Assembly: GCA_963665235.2 (NCBI GenBank)
Contig: CAXXLX010000001.1
Span: 2,272,001 to 2,336,000, forward strand
Length of the DNA: 64,000 nucleotides
Direction of reading: 5' to 3'
Source: Candidatus Poribacteria bacterium
GTDB lineage: Bacteria; Poribacteria; WGA-4E; WGA-3G
The notes under the pieces are model-generated. The model was not told the origin of the DNA. It saw only the letters and a list, made by a program, of their open reading frames with translations, and searched no databases. Positions 6,562 through 16,330 of the stretch are shown here, piece after piece (positions within the stretch are counted from its first letter, which is position 1; each line of letters opens with the position of its first letter). A program made the position numbers and the translations under genes.

Positions 6562-9500
6562 CTATGATTCAAGCTCTTCAACAGGCTCAGCCAGCTCTTC
6601 AACAGGCTCAGCGAGCTCTTCCGGGGGCGTTTCTGTTTGCGACAGCGAGGTATGATTCACCTCGATATGTTGCCATTCTGAAAAGCCAGTGCCAGCCGGA
6701 ATAAGCCGTCCGAGGATAACATTCTCTTTCAACCCTGTCAAGTAGTCCACTTGTCCTTCAACTGCTGCATCCGTGAGGACTTTTGTTGTCTGCTGGAAGC
6801 TGGCAGCGGAGATGAAGCTGTCCGTACTCAGAGAGGCTTTGCCGATGCTTTGGAGCACGGGTTCACCAGTTGCGGGGGTGCCGTTCTCTTCTTGGACGCG
6901 CCTATTTTCTGTGTGGAAGAGCGTTCGGCTGACCTCATCGTTTGCGTAGAATCCGGTGTCGCCGACATCAATGATTCGTATCTTAGTCAGCATCTGTCGG
7001 ACGATGACTTCGATGTGTTTGTCATTTATCGCGCCACTCGGGTAAACGGTTTGGACTTCGTCAACGAGGTATGTCCAGACAGCTTCTTCGCCTTCAAGCG
7101 AATGCCCGTTGATAGTTGTTCTCCCGATAGCGAGGATATCGTGTGGGTTGAGGTATCCATCGGTGAGCCGTTGTCCCGCTTCGACCCAGTCGCCTTCGTC
7201 GACGCGTCGTTTTTCGTCCGGAATTTGGTATAGACGACTTTTCGTTTCGCCATCGACGATTCGGTATTGTGGAATACCCGATTTTTGTCCTTCAAGCTGG
7301 ACGTACCCTTCGATTTCTGCGATTTCGGCTGCATCTTCGCGCTTCGGACGCCGCGCCTCAAAGAGGTCGGTGACGCGCGGGATACCCCGAACGATGTCGA
7401 GGTTTGTCGTTTTCTCGTGCAATTCCGCGAGGGGTTGTTGGGCTTTCACCTTTTCCTCGGCTTCAACAGACACAGAGTATCCGGGCGAAATCAGATGCTC
7501 TTGAGGTTCAGATTTTCCACCATCGACCTCAAGCACAATCCGAAGTGTTGGAATCAAGCCATCTACCTCAACGCCCGGGTACCGCTTCATAGCGGCATCG
7601 TACTCCGCCTGTGAGAGCGTATGTCCGACCTTAAAGGGACAGCGCGGATGTGTGACTGTGTTTACCTTATAGGTAGTTTGTGCTGACGCTTTAACCACTT
7701 TCTTATAATCAGCATCGCTCAACACCTCATCCACCGTAAGGTCTATTTCGGGGTCACTCACCTTTGTCACTTTATAGACGCGTTCTGTCTCGAACCCTTT
7801 GTATTGGCGTTGTGCCCGTTTATAGTCCTCCTCGTCAATTTGTTCATCGGCAGTGAGCGGGCAGTCAGCATGATGAACAGCGAGTATGTGGTACGCTAGT
7901 CGGATATCCGGTAAGGGTGTCTCGGTGTCTCGGTGGTGTTTGACAAGTGCCTTGTAGTCTGTATCTGTCAACACCTTTTCCGCCGGGGCATCATCTACTG
8001 CGTCACTGTTTTCCTGCGTTAGGAAATAAAGTTTTTCCGCGTCAAACCCCTTAAAGTTTCGACGGAACCGGTTCGATTCAGACGATGTAATGAGGTCCCC
8101 CACCTTTGCGGGGAATTCTTCGCTGTGATGAATTGCCGTGATGCGATAGAGCCGTTCGACCTCGAACGCACTTGGGCCTTTCGTCGAAGTCACCTCAAAG
8201 CCGGGGTATTTCTTGAGCGTTTCCTTGTATTCCTTCTCTGTGAGGTACGTCCACTTTGTGGCTGTCTCGGTCTCCTCTATCGCCGGTTCCATCGGACATT
8301 CCGGGTGATGCACCGAGATTAGGCGGTGCTTGAGCCGTTCTACCGTCACTCCTTCGAATTTATCTTTGAGCTTCGATAAATTTTCCGGGGGGATGTGTTC
8401 GCCCGGTTTTAGCGGACATTCCGGGTGATGCACTTCGGTGACACAATAAGGTGGGTTTGTTCGTCGTTTGACTTCAAACGCCTTATACTGCTGCCGTGCT
8501 TCGTCATACGCGGCTTTGGACAACTCCTGCTCGACTGTCAGTTCAACCCCTTCGCTCACCTCTGTAACCCGGTAGACCGGCTCATCAAGTTCTAAGTGGT
8601 ATTGCCGTTCCTGTTCTGGGGTGAGGAGGTCACCTACCTTAAAGGGGCAGCTGGGATGCATTATAGTTTGGATTCTATACATCTGCGGCAGCTCTGGGTT
8701 GCTTTTCCCTTTTCCTTGTATGCGGAGGTATTCCGGATATTCGTCTTCAGTCAGGATATCGCCAGTTTTGGTTTGACGGACCCATTCGCCATCAAAGGGT
8801 CGGATTTGGTCGCGCCATTCTTCTACCTCATTCTCTGATAGGAGCTGCCCCGGTTTGAGGGGGTTGTCTGGATGTGTGACCTGCTTGATAGGGTAGTGGG
8901 CTGCATCGCAACGGAACCGTGAAAAACGTCGGGAACATTCCACATATCCACGGTCTGTGAGCAGTGTTCCGATTTGTAGCTCGGGGGCTGTCGAAACGAT
9001 ATCCGGATTCACAGCCGTCACCTCGTGCGCGGCTAGTTCCGCTTTAAACCCTGGAAAATCTTCCAATGCCTTTTGGTACTGTTTCTCTGTCAGCAGTTCG
9101 CCCGGTTCTAACCGACAGTCAGGATGTTGAACCGTTCTGATTTTGTACCTTGGCTGGTCGGAGTCTTCCTCGTACTGTTTGGCAATCCAGAGGTCGCCCT
9201 CTTTTCGGACAGTTCTGTCGGGGATAAAGTCTCGGAATCGGACGGTACCTGCAGCTTTTGCGAGTGTTTTTCGGGCAAGCCGTTCGCTCACATCTTCAAC
9301 GACCCCGCCTGTATGGAATGTGCGCATCGTTAGCTGTGTGCCAGGTTCACCAATGGATTGGGCTGCGATAATACCAATCGCTTCGCCGACGTTCACTAGG
9401 CGTCCTGAGCTTAAGTCAGTTCCATAGCAGGTCGCGCATGCACCTTTTTCGGTTTCACATGTCAGGACAGAGCGGACACGGACGCTTGGCACTTCCGCCT

Positions 9501-12255
9501 CTTCAAGCGATTTCGACATTGCTGCATTCAACAGGGTACCACTAGCAACCAAGGTTTCCTCTGTTTCTGGATGGTGGACAGCCTCAACGGTTACCCGGCC
9601 CTCAATTTTGAAAGCGAGCCCGCCAGCATCTGTAGCGAATTTGAGAATACCGTGCGTTGTCCCACAGTCCTCCTGCGTAATCATGACATCTTGTGCAACA
9701 TCCACTAGTTTGCGCGTTAAATATCCGGAGGCCGCGGTTTTCATTGCGGTATCGACCAACCCTTTCCGTGAGCCGTAGGTTGATGTGAAGTAGTCGAGCA
9801 CATCAAGTCCTTCACGGTAGGAGGACTGAATAGGCGTTGAGAGGATTTCGCCGCTCTGCTTGGATTTCAATCCGACAATTGCACTGATTTGTACGAACGG
9901 ATTTTTACGCGCTCGCGCACCACTCTCTGCCATGAGATGAACGGGACTAAACCCTTCTACCGCCTTGTCTTGCTCGACGAGGTGTGTTTCCGTAGCGGGT
10001 AGCAGCGAGAACAATCGTTCCTCAATTTGTTCAATTGCGGAGAACCATAACCGAATTTTTTCGTTTTCCAGCTCCTCCATCTCGAGGTCACCTTGTTCCA
10101 TCAGGCTTTCGATTTGCGCGTTTGCGTTCGCCAGAATTTCGGTTTTGTCCGGGGGTATCAGATAATCTCGGATACCCGGTGAGATACCGCTCAACGTTGC
10201 GTATTCAAAGCTCAGTGTTTGCAACCTATCTAAGAGTGCGACTGTCTCTGCTGTGCCGAGTTCATTAAAGCAGCGGTTCACAAGTGCGGACAACCGTTTG
10301 CCGCGTGCTTCATTGTTAAAGAAAGGCAGTGCCATCCCAGTTGTCTCATCAGTCCATAGGAGCGGTGTCCCGGCACCGCTGTCTTGCGGCAGTACTTCGT
10401 TGAAAATTACCCTGCCAACGGTGGTGAGAATCGGTTCTCTGTGTCCTTCAAAGAACAGTTGAATTGAGTCGTGGAGTTTCAATGCGCCGCAGCCGTGTGC
10501 GTGCGTCACTTCATCCATAGAAAAATAGCGGCGGCTCGCCCAGGATTCCGCTTTCAATCCTGTAAGTGCTTTCTCCTGAGCGCGTCCTTTTTTCGTGTAT
10601 GCCTCATGTAGCTGCACTGCGGCATCTTCATGCTCTGGCAGTGCCCTTGTGAGAAAACTGGCGCCCAGTATCATATCCAATTCTGGTACCGTGATGGGGC
10701 CACCGTGTGAGGGTTTGAGGATATTGCCGCTGCTGAGCAGTAACATTTTCGCTTCTGCGCGGGCTTCAACTGTCAACGGTACATGTACAGCCATTTGGTC
10801 ACCATCGAAATCGGCATTGAAGGCTTTGCAGACGAGCGGTGGAATTCGGATGGATTTCCCTTCAACGAGAACAGGCATAAAGGCTTGTATGCCGAGCCTA
10901 TGGAGCGTCGGGGGACGATTCAGCAGGACAGGGTGGTCAGCGATGACGGTCTCTAATGCCTCCCAAACGGGGGAATCGGGTGCGACGTGGTCAGTCATAT
11001 ATTGTCCCTGCTTAATCGTTTCTGCCTTTCCGCTGAGCATGAGTTTCTCAATAATAAACGGTTTGAAGAGTTGAACCGCCATCCATTTGGGCAGTCCGCA
11101 CTGATGCAGTTCCAATTCTGGACCGACGACAATAACGCTTCTGCCGGAGTAGTCGACCCGTTTTCCGAGTAGATTTTGCCGGAAGCGTCCCACTTTTCCC
11201 TTCAAGATAGCGGAGAGGGATTTGAGTTCACGGTTTCCTGGGCCTGTTACGCGGCGTCCGTGTCTGCCGTTATCTAGGAAAGCGTCGACAGATTCTTGTA
11301 GCATCCGTTTCTCATTTCGGAGGATTACCTCTGGGGACCGAATGTCTATGAGTTTCTGCAACCGGTTATTACGATTGATGACGCGTCGGTATAGGTCATT
11401 CAGGTCGCTAGTTGCGAATCTACCGCCTTCTAGAGAGACGAGGGGCCGGAGGTTAGGACTGATTACGGGGAGGACTTCGAGTATCATCCATTCTGGACGC
11501 ATGTCGGCTTTTTCGAAGCCGGCGACCATCTTCAGCTTTTTTGAGAGTTTGAGCCGTTTCTGGTGGCTGGACGTAGCTTCAAGTTCCTCTGTCAGTTTTT
11601 CGACCTCTGTGGGCAGGTCGATTTGGCGCAAGAGTTCCTGTATTGCTTCCGCGCCGAGGCCGGCACTGAAGTGTTTCGGAAAATCGCGCTGCTTTGCTAA
11701 CAACTCCGGTTCTGTCAGGATTTCACCTATCTTTAGCTCACAGGCATCATCATGTACCGCTGTTACAATAAATGCTTCAAAGTAGAGTACACGTTCGATT
11801 TGCCGGGAACCGAGTTCTAGGAAAGCCCCGAGTCGTGACGGGATTCCTTTGAAAAACCAGATATGGGAGACAGGCGCGGCGAGTTTGATGTACCCGAGGC
11901 GCTCACGTCTCACCTCCGATTTGGTGATTTCAACGCCACATTGGTCACAAATCACCCCTTTATGCTTAATGCGCTTGTATTTACCACAATTGCATTCAAA
12001 ATCCTTCTGCGGTCCGAAGGTGGCTTCACAAAAGAGGCCTTGGTGTTCAGGTCGAAAACTGCGGTAATTGATAGTTTCCGCTTTTTTGATTTCTCCGCAG
12101 TCACAGGTCCCCATTTCGGGGCAGCCGCCTGCTGGGAAACCTGTCAGATTCCGCCGTTTACAAGACGTGCGTTTCGCCCATTCCTTTATCTGTGCAGGTG
12201 AGGCGATGCGGATGGAGATACGGTTAAACGGCTCTTTCGGATTGGGACGTGCCAT
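6562..12255 (-). CDS. rpoC: RNA polymerase beta' subunit (very large, with repeat insertion)
   Basis: NADFDGDQM catalytic motif, N-terminal zinc ribbon, QLTMRTFHTGG trigger loop, GLKENVILGRLIPAGTG C-terminus. Confidence 0.98.
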   Translation of the reverse strand: MARPNPKEPFNRISIRIASPAQIKEWAKRTSCKRRNLTGFPAGGCPEMGTCDCGEIKKAETINYRSFRPEHQGLFCEATFGPQKDFECNCGKYKRIKHKGVICDQCGVEITKSEVRRERLGYIKLAAPVSHIWFFKGIPSRLGAFLELGSRQIERVLYFEAFIVTAVHDDACELKIGEILTEPELLAKQRDFPKHFSAGLGAEAIQELLRQIDLPTEVEKLTEELEATSSHQKRLKLSKKLKMVAGFEKADMRPEWMILEVLPVISPNLRPLVSLEGGRFATSDLNDLYRRVINRNNRLQKLIDIRSPEVILRNEKRMLQESVDAFLDNGRHGRRVTGPGNRELKSLSAILKGKVGRFRQNLLGKRVDYSGRSVIVVGPELELHQCGLPKWMAVQLFKPFIIEKLMLSGKAETIKQGQYMTDHVAPDSPVWEALETVIADHPVLLNRPPTLHRLGIQAFMPVLVEGKSIRIPPLVCKAFNADFDGDQMAVHVPLTVEARAEAKMLLLSSGNILKPSHGGPITVPELDMILGASFLTRALPEHEDAAVQLHEAYTKKGRAQEKALTGLKAESWASRRYFSMDEVTHAHGCGALKLHDSIQLFFEGHREPILTTVGRVIFNEVLPQDSGAGTPLLWTDETTGMALPFFNNEARGKRLSALVNRCFNELGTAETVALLDRLQTLSFEYATLSGISPGIRDYLIPPDKTEILANANAQIESLMEQGDLEMEELENEKIRLWFSAIEQIEERLFSLLPATETHLVEQDKAVEGFSPVHLMAESGARARKNPFVQISAIVGLKSKQSGEILSTPIQSSYREGLDVLDYFTSTYGSRKGLVDTAMKTAASGYLTRKLVDVAQDVMITQEDCGTTHGILKFATDAGGLAFKIEGRVTVEAVHHPETEETLVASGTLLNAAMSKSLEEAEVPSVRVRSVLTCETEKGACATCYGTDLSSGRLVNVGEAIGIIAAQSIGEPGTQLTMRTFHTGGVVEDVSERLARKTLAKAAGTVRFRDFIPDRTVRKEGDLWIAKQYEEDSDQPRYKIRTVQHPDCRLEPGELLTEKQYQKALEDFPGFKAELAAHEVTAVNPDIVSTAPELQIGTLLTDRGYVECSRRFSRFRCDAAHYPIKQVTHPDNPLKPGQLLSENEVEEWRDQIRPFDGEWVRQTKTGDILTEDEYPEYLRIQGKGKSNPELPQMYRIQTIMHPSCPFKVGDLLTPEQERQYHLELDEPVYRVTEVSEGVELTVEQELSKAAYDEARQQYKAFEVKRRTNPPYCVTEVHHPECPLKPGEHIPPENLSKLKDKFEGVTVERLKHRLISVHHPECPMEPAIEETETATKWTYLTEKEYKETLKKYPGFEVTSTKGPSAFEVERLYRITAIHHSEEFPAKVGDLITSSESNRFRRNFKGFDAEKLYFLTQENSDAVDDAPAEKVLTDTDYKALVKHHRDTETPLPDIRLAYHILAVHHADCPLTADEQIDEEDYKRAQRQYKGFETERVYKVTKVSDPEIDLTVDEVLSDADYKKVVKASAQTTYKVNTVTHPRCPFKVGHTLSQAEYDAAMKRYPGVEVDGLIPTLRIVLEVDGGKSEPQEHLISPGYSVSVEAEEKVKAQQPLAELHEKTTNLDIVRGIPRVTDLFEARRPKREDAAEIAEIEGYVQLEGQKSGIPQYRIVDGETKSRLYQIPDEKRRVDEGDWVEAGQRLTDGYLNPHDILAIGRTTINGHSLEGEEAVWTYLVDEVQTVYPSGAINDKHIEVIVRQMLTKIRIIDVGDTGFYANDEVSRTLFHTENRRVQEENGTPATGEPVLQSIGKASLSTDSFISAASFQQTTKVLTDAAVEGQVDYLTGLKENVILGRLIPAGTGFSEWQHIEVNHTSLSQTETPPEELAEPVEELAEPVEELES

Positions 12256-12304: not shown

Positions 12305-15300
12305 CTACTCTTTTGTCTGCCAGGGTAATTTCATTGACAGTTCAGATTCTAAAGATTCGGTTGTATCCGCCTCCGTGTCTGTCTCGATTGTTTGTTGGAG
12401 AAAACGGAGTGCTTCGCGAATATCTGCTTTCGGTTCCGGTACCTCATCTGTCTCGTCATCTTCTGTGAATTTGACGTTGAGCCCGAGGCTTTGAAGTTCC
12501 CTGACTAAAACGTTGAAGGACTCCGGTGTCCCAGGGGGTATCGGGTTATTGCCTCTGACAATGGATTCATAGATTTTGCTTCTGCCCTTTACATCGTCCG
12601 ATTTGACAGTGAGCATCTCCTGCAAGGTGTGTGCAGCCCCATAAGCCTCCAATGCCCAGACCTCCATTTCGCCGAGGCGTTGGCCTCCGTGTTGTGCTTT
12701 ACCGCCCAGCGGTTGCTGTGTCACTAGCGAGTAAGGTCCAGTTGAACGTGCGTGCATTTTATCAGCGACGAGGTGATTGAGTTTCAGGAAGTAGACATAG
12801 CCTACGGTCACTTCTTGCCCGAACGGTTCGCCGGTGCGGCCATCGTAGAGGATGCTCTTTCCGGACTCTTTCACGCGTTTCGGTAGGTCGGTTTGTGCCA
12901 ACATGTCGAAAACCTCCTCCTCCGTCGCGCCATCAAAGACAGGAGAGGCGACGTAACACCCGAGTTCATGACAGGCTAAACCGAGGTGTATCTCTAGGAT
13001 TTGTCCGACGTTCATTCGGGAGGGAACACCTAACGGGTTCAAAACGATGTCTATAGGCGTGCCATCGGCGAGGTATGGCATATCCTCTTCGGGCAGTATT
13101 TTTGCAACGACCCCTTTATTTCCGTACCGGCCTGCCATTTTATCACCGACAGAAATGGGCCGACGGCTAGCAATGTAAACCTTTACTAATTTGAGTACCC
13201 CGGGTTTCAGCTCTTCACCTGCTTCTAATTTTTGCAGGGCGACCTCTTTTTCCTGGGTATACGCATCAATCCGTCCGCGTGCGATTTGCTGTAAACTTTG
13301 GAGGTATTCCATCGCTTCTTTGTCAGTGATTTGGAGTGCTGCCAATTCGGTATCATCCAACATATTGAGATACGCCTCTGTGAGGGTATCACCTGCTTGC
13401 ATCGCGCCATTTTCGGGGGTAGCTTCAGGAGCAGGGGCGGGAGCGGCGAGCTTCTTCCTGATTAATGTTTCGCGAAGTTCTACCGTTAATCGTTCTTTAA
13501 TCTGTTCCCGTTGTGCCTGCCAGGCCTGCTCAATCTGCTTGCGTTGTGCTTCTTGGCGCCAAGCCGTTCGTTCGCTATTGGGGGTCGCTTGCCGTGCGAA
13601 GACCTTAACGTCGATGACCACGCCTTCAACCCCAGGGCGTGTATACGTGGAGGCATCCTTGACCTCTTTCGCTTTTTCACCGAAAATTGCGTTCAGAAGT
13701 TTCTCTTCAGGCCCGTATTCGCTTTCACCTTTTGGTGAGATTTTACCGACGAGGAGGCTGCCTGTGCCAACGACACTGCCTACGCGAATGATACCTTCAT
13801 CGTCTAATTGTGCCAAACGGGTGCTAGACATATTCGGGATGTCGCGAGTAATTTCTTCATCACCCATTTTGGTTTGCCGCGCCGTTACCTCAAATTCCTC
13901 TATATGGATAGAGGTAAACGTATCGTTTTTGATAAGGGATTCGCTGATGAGTATTGAATCTTCATAGTTATGCCCGCCCCAGGGCATGTAAGCACAGAGA
14001 ATATTCCGGCCGAGGGCGAGTTCCCCCCCTTCAGTTGACGTTCCATCTGCAATGACATCCCCAACTTCAATAACATCGCCAATATTAACGCGGGGCAACT
14101 GATGAATGCAGGTTCCGCTATTACTGCGCCTGAAGTTTTTCAGATGGTAGACATCGTATCCCATTTCACTGAAAGCATGCTCACCCGATTCAACATGAAG
14201 TGCCTCTCCTGTACGAATCAAAATCTCTTCTGCGTCAACACTAGAGACAACGCCACCTCGACGGGCAATAACCATTGCGTTGGCATCCCGCGCAGCGCGA
14301 TGTTCTACGCCAGTCCCCACCCAAGGGGCTTCTGGAGAAATAAGGGGCACTGCTTGCCGTTGGTGGTTCGCACCCATCAAGGCACGGTTCGCATCTTCGT
14401 GCTCTAAAAACGGAACGAGTGCAGCGGAGACACCTACAATCTGCTGTGGAGCAATTCCGACGTAATCCACATCCGACAAATTGTGAAGCGTCACATCCTC
14501 GCCCTTGCGTGTACGGAGCATGCCGCTCTTGTTGCGAGGCGAAATCGCATCTGCGGGAGCAATATTGTACCGGTCTTCAGCATCCGCTGTGAGATAATGT
14601 ATCTCTGAACTGATTTCACCATCTGCTACTGGCCGGTAGGGTGTCTCTAAAAAGCCATACGGGTTGATTCGGGCAAAAGTCGCAAGCGACACAATAAGAC
14701 CGATTGAGGGCCCCTCAGGTGTTTCTAAAGGGCAGACACGTCCGTAATGCGTTCTATGAACGTCCCGGACTGCGGCAGTCGCACGGTCACGGCGAACGCC
14801 CCCAGGACCGATTGCCGAAATTCGACGTTTATGCGTTAATTCGTCTAACGGGTTTATTTGCTGCATGAACTGTGAAAGTTGGTTTGACCCGAAAAACTCC
14901 CGTAACCCGACCATCAAAGGTTTCGGATTAATCAGGTTTTTCGGATTTTTCAAAGATGCCTCTGTCGTTGTGCTCAGCTTTTCACGAGCGGAACGACGAA
15001 TCTGCAAGAGCGCGATGCGGAACTGATTTTCCAAGAGCTCCCCTATCACACGAACCCGACGATTTCCTAAATGGTCTAAGTCGTCAACAAGTCTGTCACC
15101 GTTCCGGACCAGCATGAGATGATAGAGCGTCGCTGCGATATCTTCCGGTCTCAAAATGTGCAGTTCTTCAGGCGGCAGCTCCCCTGTTTCCTCTTGATAT
15201 ATGGCGTGGTCCCCAAGTTGTCTATTTAACTTGTATCGCCCGACTTTCCCTAAATCGTAACGGGCTTTGTCAAAGAAAAGACGCTTGAGGCACTGTGATG

Positions 15301-16330
15301 CAGCGTCAGGTGTCGGAGTATCCCCTGGACGGAGAGCCCGAAATATTTCAATCAACGCGCCTTCTTGCAAGGTAGTACCTGCATAGTCTTTGACGGTATC
15401 GCGCGACAATGTATTCCGCAAAAATCGCAGCATGTGTGCATCGGTTTCAGCCAAAAGCGTCACGTGTGTCACGCCTGTATCCGTGAGGCGATTAAACTCC
15501 GCTTCTGAAAGCCGCGTGTTTGATTCAAGTAAGACCTCGCCTGATTCAGTATCAACTACGGGGTCAGCGATGACGCGGCCGACAATGTTCTGGGTTATCG
15601 GAACAACCTCGGTCTCGCCAAAAAGTTTTAAAATGTCGGCATCGGTTTCCCAGCCGAGGGCGCGTAAAAGGATAGTTGCTGGCAGTTTCCGGCGCCGGTC
15701 TATCCGGACATGGAGGCAGTCCTTCGAATCGAATTCAAACTCAATCCAGGCCCCCCGATAGGGGATAATTTGCCCTGTGGGGAGTTTCTGAACACTAGAT
15801 GGATGCGATTTGTCAAGAAAAATAACACCGGGCGACCGCTGCAACTGATTGACAATAACCCGCTCCGAACCATTGACGATGAACGTCCCGTTTTCTGTCA
15901 TCAGCGGAATATCGCCGAGGTAAACGTCCGCTTGGGTAATGTCAACGACGCGCGTCTGCCCCGTATCGCTATCTTTTTCACGCTCAACGCACATAAGACG
16001 CGCTTGTAAACGGACCTGATAATTAAGCCCGCGTGCCTGGCAATCGACAAGGTCATGCGTCGGTGTACCGAGGGCATAACTCACGAATTCAAGACTTGCA
16101 GTCTCTTTAAAGTCGTAAATCGGAAAAATTTCTTCAAACAGTGCCTGAAGTCCTATTGATTCCCGTTTATCTTCCGGTACAGAACGCTGCATGAACGCGT
16201 CGTAGGACAGCTTTTGAGTCTCAATTAAGTCAGGCAATTCAAGGATAGAAGGGGTCTTGGCAAAGGAGATACGTTCCCGTAAGGCTGCTGGACTTCCATT
16301 TGTTTTTTTATTCGCTGGCATAATTTTCAC
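12305..16330 (-). CDS. rpoB: RNA polymerase beta subunit
   Basis: [49 protein letters not shown] motifs. Confidence 0.98.
   Translation of the reverse strand: [1341 protein letters not shown]

Follow-up and report, generated by a model that had tools for sequence, protein, structure and literature searches.

The analysed window, a 64,000-nucleotide stretch of a Candidatus Poribacteria contig (CAXXLX010000001.1), contains the RNA polymerase genes rpoB and rpoC in direct succession on the reverse strand. The beta' subunit is encoded as one unsplit polypeptide, and a long insertion lies between the two halves of its trigger loop (TL). The features of the locus are given below with their positions in the window, in the order in which they are translated.

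12305..16330, minus strand: rpoB, 1341 aa, directly upstream of rpoC (open reading frame)
6562..12255, minus strand: rpoC, RNA polymerase beta' subunit, 1897 aa (TIGR02386, 1408 bits; Pfam Rpb1 domains 1-5)
11665..11772, minus strand: clamp segment (beta'-bD2 / sLC, 'small left claw'), aa 162-197, the closest sequence to the array modules elsewhere in this genome (hhalign and genome-wide HMM)
9304..9330, minus strand: N-terminal half of the TL, TMRTFHTGG, aa 976-984 (invariant in 68 aligned sequences)
9154..9303, minus strand: linker and N-terminal part of a single sandwich-barrel hybrid motif (SBHM), aa 985-1034, containing '..LAKAAGTVRFRDFIPDRTVRKE..' (hhalign; beginning of the second SI3 SBHM)
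7558..9153, minus strand: 13 tandem modules of ~40 aa, R1-R13, aa 1035-1566, of which 11 are solid, R10 is diverged and R4 is truncated (profile comparisons)
7399..7557, minus strand: C-terminal part of the SBHM, aa 1567-1619, '..RIVLEVDGG..HLISPGYSVSVEAEEKVKAQQPLAEL..' (hhalign; end of the second SI3 SBHM)
7372..7398, minus strand: C-terminal half of the TL, DIVRGIPRV, from aa 1620 (motif position; 68 aligned sequences)

The insertion comprises aa 985-1619 (window 7399..9303) and separates TMRTFHTGG from DIVRGIPRV by 635 aa at the SI3 (beta'i6) site. A first-pass annotation of this DNA had described about 630 aa between these motifs, with repeats at 7560-9150 that resemble the clamp segment of the same protein at ~11662-11773; the measured length, the repeat array (7558..9153) and the clamp segment (11665..11772) agree with this description. 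The base composition of the insertion is that of the remaining rpoC, and searches of the rpoC protein covered the module with no Pfam or NCBIfam family. The SI3 of E. coli has the same insertion point between the TL halves, but there only 198 residues lie between the same two motifs (TL-N 934, TL-C 1133). In the literature it is given as an insertion of 188 aa with two SBHMs, whereas one SBHM and 13 non-SBHM modules make up the insertion described here.

Thirteen units were delimited in the array, and per-unit profiles built from 68 orthologues were compared all-against-all with hhalign. Eleven units (R1-3, R5-9 and R11-13) were mutually homologous with probabilities of 72-99%. The diverged unit R10 connected to R12 alone (86%), and R4, by eye a truncated unit reading 'EWV..T..GDILTEDEY', was not detected by the unit profiles (<=3%). 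The initial count of ~13 diverged ~40-aa repeats is a fair one, given 11 solid units, one diverged and one truncated. A two-module super-repeat, in which His-bearing and His-less units alternate, was also considered and was dropped because the raw hhalign scores gave no clean two-class split. At the DNA level, Tandem Repeats Finder (longest period 500) detected micro-repeats of 8 and 11 nt only and no tandem repeat near the ~120-nt period of the unit, which argues that the amplification is old.

A pooled module profile of 253 sequences was compared with the rest of beta' (1305 columns) and yielded a single match, aa 162-197 (hhalign 96.4%, E 1.3e-9), with the runner-up at 0.2%. A six-frame search of the 5.3-Mb genome with an 11-module profile returned the 11 modules themselves (E 1.4e-10 to 3.2e-19, the profile having been built from these same modules), the clamp segment as the sole significant non-self match (E 2.5e-6), and then noise at E 0.30. 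The profile self-search proposed in the first-pass annotation was thereby carried out and recovered the clamp segment of rpoC, so that the reported resemblance is homology at the profile level. The segment aligns colinearly with E. coli beta' at about residues 141-176 (solved chains) and, by position, is the bacterial beta'-bD2 element (sLC, CATH 3.30.60.280). A domain table in PMC11515920 names the beta' elements including bD2/sLC, and bD2 (E. coli beta' ~142-181) is a constitutive bacterial element according to that paper. The best match of the module profile in E. coli beta' was once more this segment (aa 157-178, 2.8 bits); 200 shuffles gave 1.5 bits at most. Scored against the TL-module profile, the clamp segments from four array-free genomes of sister families reached 28.3-36.3 bits and that of E. 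coli 4 bits; the clamp segment of some close relatives scored low (P0010, 8.2 bits). A PDB sequence search with the 11-module profile returned nothing significant. Three beta' chains and calmodulin-like 'LTEEE' helices shared first place at E 0.3-2; among the beta' chains, that of B. subtilis scored best (aa 136-162, 13.7 bits, E 0.45, not significant), which is only a hint. No match of the module profile was obtained at the second sLC element of beta' (bD7), at the BEAN element (bD5) or at E. coli beta-i4. A BLAST self-match of the insertion to aa 883-1145 was examined as possible BEAN homology and rejected, since subject aa 1035-1145 lie inside the repeats of the array and a bD5 profile match is absent. 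As far as profiles can tell, the array modules and the clamp element bD2 of bacterial beta' are members of one sequence family.

Matches to SBHMs were confined to two pieces of the insertion, aa ~997-1034 and 1567-1612. In the SI3 of sister families and of E. coli, the beginning of the second SBHM was matched by the N-terminal flank (hhalign 88.7%, E 2.6e-6) and its end by the C-terminal flank (95.1%, E 3.4e-8; 98.7% with the TL-C flank included). Judged by these comparisons, the array is flanked on either side by one half of a single SBHM that is homologous to the second SBHM of the classical SI3, as expected from the earlier proposal that the modules were placed into an SBHM loop. The first SBHM of E. 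coli SI3 is without a counterpart in the insertion. One SBHM, the counterpart of the second SBHM of an E. coli-type SI3, would thus remain and host the 13 tandem ~40-aa modules in a loop, and the array would leave it from the loop equivalent to E. coli 'SAERTAGGKDLRP'.

Of the genomes sampled from the same family (f1), 97 of 99 have the insertion, single-contig assemblies among them, and it is absent from all 51 sampled genomes of the sister families (f2-f9); 139 related proteins carry it. The TL insertions of five sister-family genomes were read, and four of them measure 193-212 aa and are colinear with the two-SBHM SI3 of E. coli, while one measures 369 aa. Both length and register are conserved across genera: the insertion has 613 aa in most of a close group of orthologues and 617-657 aa in most of a distant group, and every repeat aligned in register across the groups. 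Identity to the window protein is 54.9% (close group) and 35.6% (distant group) in the array, compared to 80.8% and 69.4% in the core. Sequence change is faster in the array than in the beta' core, which is compatible with a largely passive, tolerated appendage.

It is exceedingly improbable that the insertion is an assembly artefact, or that the mature enzyme lacks it because it is an intein or another removed element. Nothing was found in favour of this idea, and it is contradicted by the open frame, by the retention of the insertion throughout the family and in the related proteins counted above, and by the absence of any intein family in Pfam searches. All bins (30 of 30) of window 7000-9700 are covered by DNA run X6, which stems from another study, and no joint or indel over the insertion was observed in any of four sequencing runs; uncovered stretches in runs X5, X7 and X9 carry no meaning. 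Contigs from RNA libraries fall inside the array and none bridges it, a result that speaks to presence in RNA libraries only. An authentic insertion could also be an ordinary multi-SBHM insertion, like cyanobacterial Si3, that has diverged past recognition by eye. The shared insertion site, the similar size of Si3 (639 residues in the text of PMC10895346) and the true SBHM pieces at both ends of the array would suit such an origin. However, the whole-insertion profile matched sister-family and E. coli SI3 at the flanks only, and inside the 532-aa array the best SI3 match was 0.1%, so by sequence this is not an SBHM (HABAS)-built insertion. As the ~40-aa unit is also about half the size of an SBHM and the units match bD2 at 96.4%, this explanation is very improbable. 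The first-pass annotation had further suggested that recurrent His/Cys pairs bind metal or sense redox state. A device of this kind on the TL, formed by His-Pro-x-Cys motifs, would agree with a His that is nearly invariant in seven modules (R1, R3, R7, R8, R9, R11 and R13) and a Cys that is nearly invariant in four (R1, R7, R8 and R13) across the 68 orthologues, as well as with the H-x-x-C of modules in TPR proteins. Yet no module has more than one His and one Cys, in contrast to the three or four conserved ligands per site of a zinc- or metal-binding repeat. The Cys position is occupied by Phe (R5, R9) or Leu (R11) in half of the orthologues and by Ile, Thr, Leu or Val in R3; these replacements suit a buried hydrophobic position and not a ligand, and thus argue against metal binding. 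There are six H..C modules in the close group and five in the distant group, which makes pairing into four-ligand sites uneven, and the clamp segment keeps its Cys in 68 of 68 sequences but has Thr, Ile or Met where modules have His. The suggestion does not hold up well against these data and a metal or redox function is improbable.

The origin of the modules is less clear-cut. They carry a phylum-specific bD2 signature, 'D/H-P-x-C-P-L ... G-x-L-L-T-E-x-E-Y', and since this signature is common to the modules and bD2, most likely the bD2 of this lineage was the template for the modules and their amplification preceded the radiation of the family. The clamp segments of sister families without the array, at 28-36 bits, fit a donor within the lineage. 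Alternatively, the modules could represent a mobile family that spread in-frame within the lineage and is not derived from the clamp, with the clamp segment being a distant cousin or itself remodelled. In genera g3, g4 and g6, rpoB does have this module at its beta-i4 site (hhalign 96.7% and 95.2%), unlike the rpoB of this genome, which is without extra modules there. Orthologues P0003-6, P0008 and P0014 bear it too, within an insertion of 450-560 aa at beta'-bD5 and alongside PF18741/PF04480, and it is present in the TPR proteins P0133, P0134 and P0146; the best relative of P0134 is encoded in a genome of the same family. Module sites therefore include the beta lobe, two or three positions in beta' and TPR proteins, sometimes beside a restriction-endonuclease-like domain, and the TL modules score alike against beta-lobe modules (61 and 52) and the clamp segment (58) in hhalign. 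Even so, this alternative is unlikely. The bD2 element is constitutive in bacteria according to PMC11515920, its full signature is already present in sister families without an array at the TL, the site examined there (28-36 bits), and the six-frame profile search of the own genome found no module outside rpoC; modules of 40 residues are too short for a resolved tree. Of the proposed copying from clamp to trigger loop, the homology stands and is strengthened by the bD2 scores of the sister families. The direction is likely and not proven, and the donor cannot be fixed, because the module also occurs at beta-i4, at a second beta' site and in TPR proteins of the family.

The preferred reading is that of a domain insertion specific to this lineage, located at the classical SI3 (beta'i6) site, that is fixed in one family of Poribacteria, consists mostly of modules from the own bD2 and serves as a TL-tuning arm, and we consider this reading probable. 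Each module is predicted to fold like bD2 (strand-strand-helix), and the array would be a mildly acidic, folded appendage with a mass of ~60 kDa, tethered via the SBHM to both TL halves. Such tethering implies that each folding of the TL into the trigger helices must displace the array. By analogy to E. coli SI3 and cyanobacterial Si3, it would be a mobile TL arm on the polymerase that most likely tunes TL folding (pausing, catalysis) and/or docks along the polymerase surface.

The Si3 of cyanobacteria and chloroplasts is likewise a giant insertion in the TL, of nearly equal length, whose domains are nested inside an SBHM. Cyanobacterial Si3 contains eight SBHMs (639 residues in T. elongatus), covers the Gre/DksA site and swings as the TL folds, as stated in PMC10895346. 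The same text describes cyanobacteria as a lineage without Gre and DksA, and Pfam searches gave a similar picture for the Poribacteria order. Among the families searched for Gre and DksA, PF03449 was found in 0 of 151 genomes, and PF01272 gave five weak matches only, all in frames of 1300-1455 aa. PF01258 was present in 0 of 144 genomes of families f1-f5 (plus the window's own genome) and in six of six genomes of f6-f9. The lineage thus appears to be without secondary-channel factors, Gre and DksA not having been found in the order. A link between their loss and the array in particular was rejected, as sister families f2-f5 are without these factors and also without the array. The two appendages differ in their building blocks, eight SBHMs in the cyanobacterial Si3 described there and an sLC-like ~40-aa repeat unit in Poribacteria, and cyanobacterial beta' is split into two genes whereas the Poribacteria protein is one 1897-aa chain. 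They evidently arose independently. A bolder reading is possible, if rather doubtful. Here the array is a second, independent giant TL appendage of Si3 size in a lineage likewise without Gre/DksA, built from a bD2 brick that acts as an in-frame mobile module in the family (beta lobe, two or three beta' sites, TPR proteins, sometimes beside an endonuclease-like domain), and the TL and beta-lobe arrays may gate TL folding by docking onto one another.

Other insertional modules of RNA polymerase were compared as well. Rare beta' variants with extra sLC, BEAN and HABAS insertions have been reported (Alvarez-Carreno et al. 2024, PMC11515920); according to the main text these insertions lie in bD2, bD4, bD5 and bD7 and those in the TL are HABAS (SBHM), unlike the array described here. 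That main text does not mention a 13-copy tandem array or the word 'Poribacteria'; supplementary Table S4 could list a Poribacteria variant. BBM2/BEAN modules are small alpha+beta modules that occur in one to six tandem copies in the lineage-specific inserts beta-i4 and beta-i5 (PMC2939025; bioRxiv 2022.01.17.476619), and BBM2 in beta' is treated in PMC2939025, PMC1586193 and bioRxiv 2022.01.17.476619. A parallel exists in that the Poribacteria module itself occupies the beta-i4 site in related genera. These modules of relatives match at 96.7% and 95.2% and the conserved 'TGE' unit at only 3%, and no sequence match was detectable at E. coli beta, including beta-i4, or at beta'-bD5; BEAN (CATH 3.90.105.10) and sLC (CATH 3.30.60.280) are separate CATH entries. 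The first-pass annotation knew of no description of such a TL architecture, and our literature searches, which covered the text of papers, found none either.

The TL insertions in the literature examined are SBHM repeats only, which shape pausing, proofreading and factor access. In this family of Poribacteria a different module takes the architectural role of the SBHM repeats at that site, and the insertion becomes as large as cyanobacterial Si3. This provides a natural convergent case for asking what role a giant TL appendage has, and raises the question of whether it substitutes for, or excludes, the secondary-channel factors, none of which were found in the order. The polymerase would here reuse its own constitutive element as a building block, and the dispersal of this block within one bacterial family offers a tractable example of how insertional domains arise.

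The trigger loop (TL) of the RNA polymerase beta' subunit encoded in the window contains an insertion of 635 residues, whereas the two motifs that flank it are 198 residues apart in E. coli beta', where SI3 resides (own count).

Features of the rpoB-rpoC region (window coordinates unless marked aa)
6562..12255, minus strand: rpoC, beta' of 1897 aa (TIGR02386, 1408 bits; Pfam Rpb1 domains 1-5)
12305..16330: rpoB, directly upstream of rpoC
aa 976-984 of beta': N-terminal half of the TL, TMRTFHTGG
7399..9303: TL insertion, 635 residues, between TMRTFHTGG and DIVRGIPRV
7558..9153, minus strand: array of 13 consecutive units, aa 1035-1566
from aa 1620 of beta': C-terminal half of the TL, DIVRGIPRV

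The base composition of the insertion is that of the remaining rpoC. The possibility of an assembly artefact, raised in the first-pass annotation, was checked with independent contigs and did not hold up: DNA-run contigs from another study covered 30 of 30 bins of 7000-9700, and no joints or indels were found across the region in four runs. The window's contig spans over 2.3 Mb and belongs to a four-contig assembly. Contigs from two RNA libraries also fall within the array, which establishes that it is present in RNA libraries but does not prove transcription.

About 13 tandem repeats had been proposed, at a location that agrees with the delimited array. Profiles of each ~40-aa unit (R1-R13), built from 68 orthologues, were compared all against all. 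Eleven of the 13 delimited units (R1-R3, R5-R9, R11-R13) recognized one another at 72-99% probability, whereas R10 was linked to R12 alone (86%) and R4 went undetected by the other unit profiles (<=3%), so that mutual homology was upheld for the 11 units. In more distant orthologues the consensus is plainly present in R10; R4 looks like a truncated unit, its sequence apparently retaining 'W-V-x-x-T ... G-D-I-L-T-E-x-E-Y'. Tandem Repeats Finder detected no tandem repeat in the DNA whose period is close to the ~120-nt unit, and the amplification of the array is therefore old.

The flanks of the array were compared with SI3 of sister families and E. coli, the TL itself being excluded. Residues 990-1034 match the beginning of the second of the sandwich-barrel hybrid motifs (SBHM, also HABAS) in SI3 (88.7%, E 2.6e-6) and residues 1567-1612 its end (95.1%, E 3.4e-8), while the array interior gave no match (best 0.1%). 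The order is therefore the N-terminal TL half, a single SBHM interrupted by the 532-residue module array and the C-terminal TL half, in line with the earlier placement of the array within an SBHM. E. coli SI3 comprises a first and a second SBHM; in contrast, the profile comparison found no counterpart of the first in the insertion of the window's family, which consists of the second-SBHM counterpart and the module array.

Relatives of the modules were sought by comparing one profile that pooled the 11 solid units (253 sequences) with the rest of beta', insertion columns removed (1305 columns). The single match was the N-terminal clamp segment at aa 162-197 (96.4%, E 1.3e-9, 35 columns), with the runner-up alignment at just 0.2%; the resemblance to the protein's own clamp, suspected from the first reading, was thereby recovered. 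When the entire 5.3-Mb genome was searched in six frames with a profile of the window's own 11 units, the clamp segment (11677..11766, E 2.5e-6, 30.5 bits) came next after the 11 self units, and below it noise began at E 0.30. In solved structures of E. coli beta', the stretch colinear with this segment is about residues 141-176, and the segment is therefore placed in the element that the consulted portion of Alvarez-Carreno et al. 2024 (PMC11515920) names beta'-bD2, also 'small left claw' (sLC, CATH 3.30.60.280). E. coli beta' scored best against the module profile at aa 157-178, within bD2, with 2.8 bits (maximum of 200 shuffles, 1.5 bits), and the top beta' chain among PDB sequences reached 13.7 bits. 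In four array-free genomes of sister families, the clamp segments scored 28.3-36.3 bits (e.g. '..VLEVSDPNCPLKVKQLLTEEEYNEH..'). These high scores are the main argument for copying: judged by sequence, the modules take the form that bD2 has in this phylum, and they were most likely copied from it. A 2029-aa beta' of unknown lineage, P0139, has ~7 tandem copies of bD2 plus the following 'GxGxEA..LL' helices, an in-place amplification in the N-terminal clamp.

TL insertions in the literature surveyed are SBHM/HABAS only, and sLC and BEAN insertions are known at other beta' sites (PMC11515920, in part). The main text of that paper does not mention 'Poribacteria', and no text combining 'Poribacteria' and 'trigger loop' was found in the literature searched (supplements outside the scope of both). 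Giant TL insertions as such are known; one built of non-SBHM, bD2-like modules would be new.

The insertion was found in 139 related proteins, those named by their source being mostly beta' of 'Candidatus Poribacteria bacterium' and one being labelled hypothetical. Among 151 sampled phylum genomes it occurs in 97 of 99 from the window's family (the two others are 90% and 81% complete) and in none of 51 from eight other Poribacteria families. Five genomes of three sister families have TL insertions of 193, 198, 203, 212 and 369 aa, the first four aligning with E. coli SI3. The 369-aa insertion (locus L008, genome G053, family f4) holds a Lys/Glu-rich, apparently helical insert within an SBHM pair and is a third TL architecture in the phylum. 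Most close relatives have insertions of 613 aa and most members of a distant group insertions of 617-657 aa, with outliers of 688, 798, 884, 922, 1052 and 1258 aa; detectable modules number 11 in the window and close relatives, 12 in the distant group and 13-18 in five scanned outliers. Throughout the family, the repeats all align in register. The close and distant groups share 54.9% and 35.6% identity with the window's protein in the array, 65.9% and 46.2% in its SBHM flanks and, in the beta' core, 80.8% and 69.4%; the array is evolving more rapidly than the core, yet its length is maintained.

E. coli SI3 moves with TL folding, and the Poribacteria array, which the SBHM would anchor to both halves of the TL, should likewise move with each TL folding cycle. 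Cyanobacterial Si3 swings by about 50 Å upon TL folding and shields the secondary-channel site, according to the consulted portion of PMC10895346; there it has 639 residues and eight SBHMs, whereas the 635-residue Poribacteria insertion has one SBHM and the module array. The array is most likely a folded, mobile TL appendage that would tune TL folding, dock along the polymerase surface, or both. The first-pass annotation had also suggested that recurrent His/Cys pairs could bind metal or sense redox. Across 68 orthologues, seven modules indeed have a nearly invariant His and four a nearly invariant Cys. However, at the Cys position half of the orthologues have Phe in R5 and R9 and half have Leu in R11, R3 has an aliphatic residue or Thr there, and the clamp segment has Cys in 68/68 and no His. 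This pattern indicates a buried position, not a ligand, and a metal-binding or redox device is very improbable.

The Gre N-domain (PF03449) was found in 0 of 151 phylum genomes, and the Gre C-domain (PF01272) gave only five weak matches there, all within very long frames. None of 144 genomes of families f1-f5 (f1 being the window's), nor the window's own genome, was found to have the DksA/TraR zinc finger, which was found in 6/6 of f6-f9; controls were positive in all three profile searches. The polymerase of the window's family therefore appears to manage, like that of cyanobacteria, with none of the usual secondary-channel factors. The loss of Gre/DksA either predates the array or is independent of it.

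Among 1.84 billion library representatives, the 11-module profile matched 36 proteins at E <= 0.001, including pieces of Poribacteria-type rpoC and rpoB, P0139 and three TPR proteins (P0133, P0134, P0146) with clear 'H-P-x-C' modules. In these non-polymerase proteins and at locus L018, full and half modules alternate ('..WRVTETYHPKCSLKIDKYISDDEYKRAQ..') upstream of the TPR repeats; P0134 has its best relative in a genome of the window's family. The rpoB products of three related genera (g3, g4 and g6; L002 4466-9100, L003, L004; 1545-1915 aa) carry 3-5 modules at the beta-i4 lobe site, matching the TL module profile at 96.7% and 95.2%; no module is found in the rpoB of the window (1341 aa). 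Beta-i4 is the site of BBM2 repeats in other phyla (PMC2939025, in part). However, E. coli beta-i4 had no detectable similarity to the module profile, and the conserved 'TGE' unit reached 3% only, so that the module is at most a candidate BBM2 unit. Six orthologous beta' proteins (P0003-P0006, P0008, P0014) have an in-frame 450-560 aa insertion in the beta'-bD5 region, at the position of window aa ~890-905, with 4-6 more H-P-x-C-type modules, ~20-aa 'HYKVT.V.DGIIG' repeats and a restriction-endonuclease-like domain (PF18741/PF04480); no intein family is listed for them. A separate 320-430 aa beta' insertion near aa 700-725 occurs in P0044, P0045 and P0057.

The C-terminal tail of the window's beta' (aa 1877-1897; 6565-6627, minus strand) is acidic with short repeats, 'PPEELAEPVEELAEPVEELES'. 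Near the N-terminus (aa ~31-52; ~12100-12165, minus strand), an additional four-Cys element, 'SCKRR..CPExGTCxCGE', is inserted ahead of the conserved 'E(I/V)KK.ETINY'. It is found in rpoC of f1, f2 and f3, with nearly invariant Cys columns, is absent from f4 and E. coli, and may be an extra zinc knuckle close to the N-terminal zinc ribbon.
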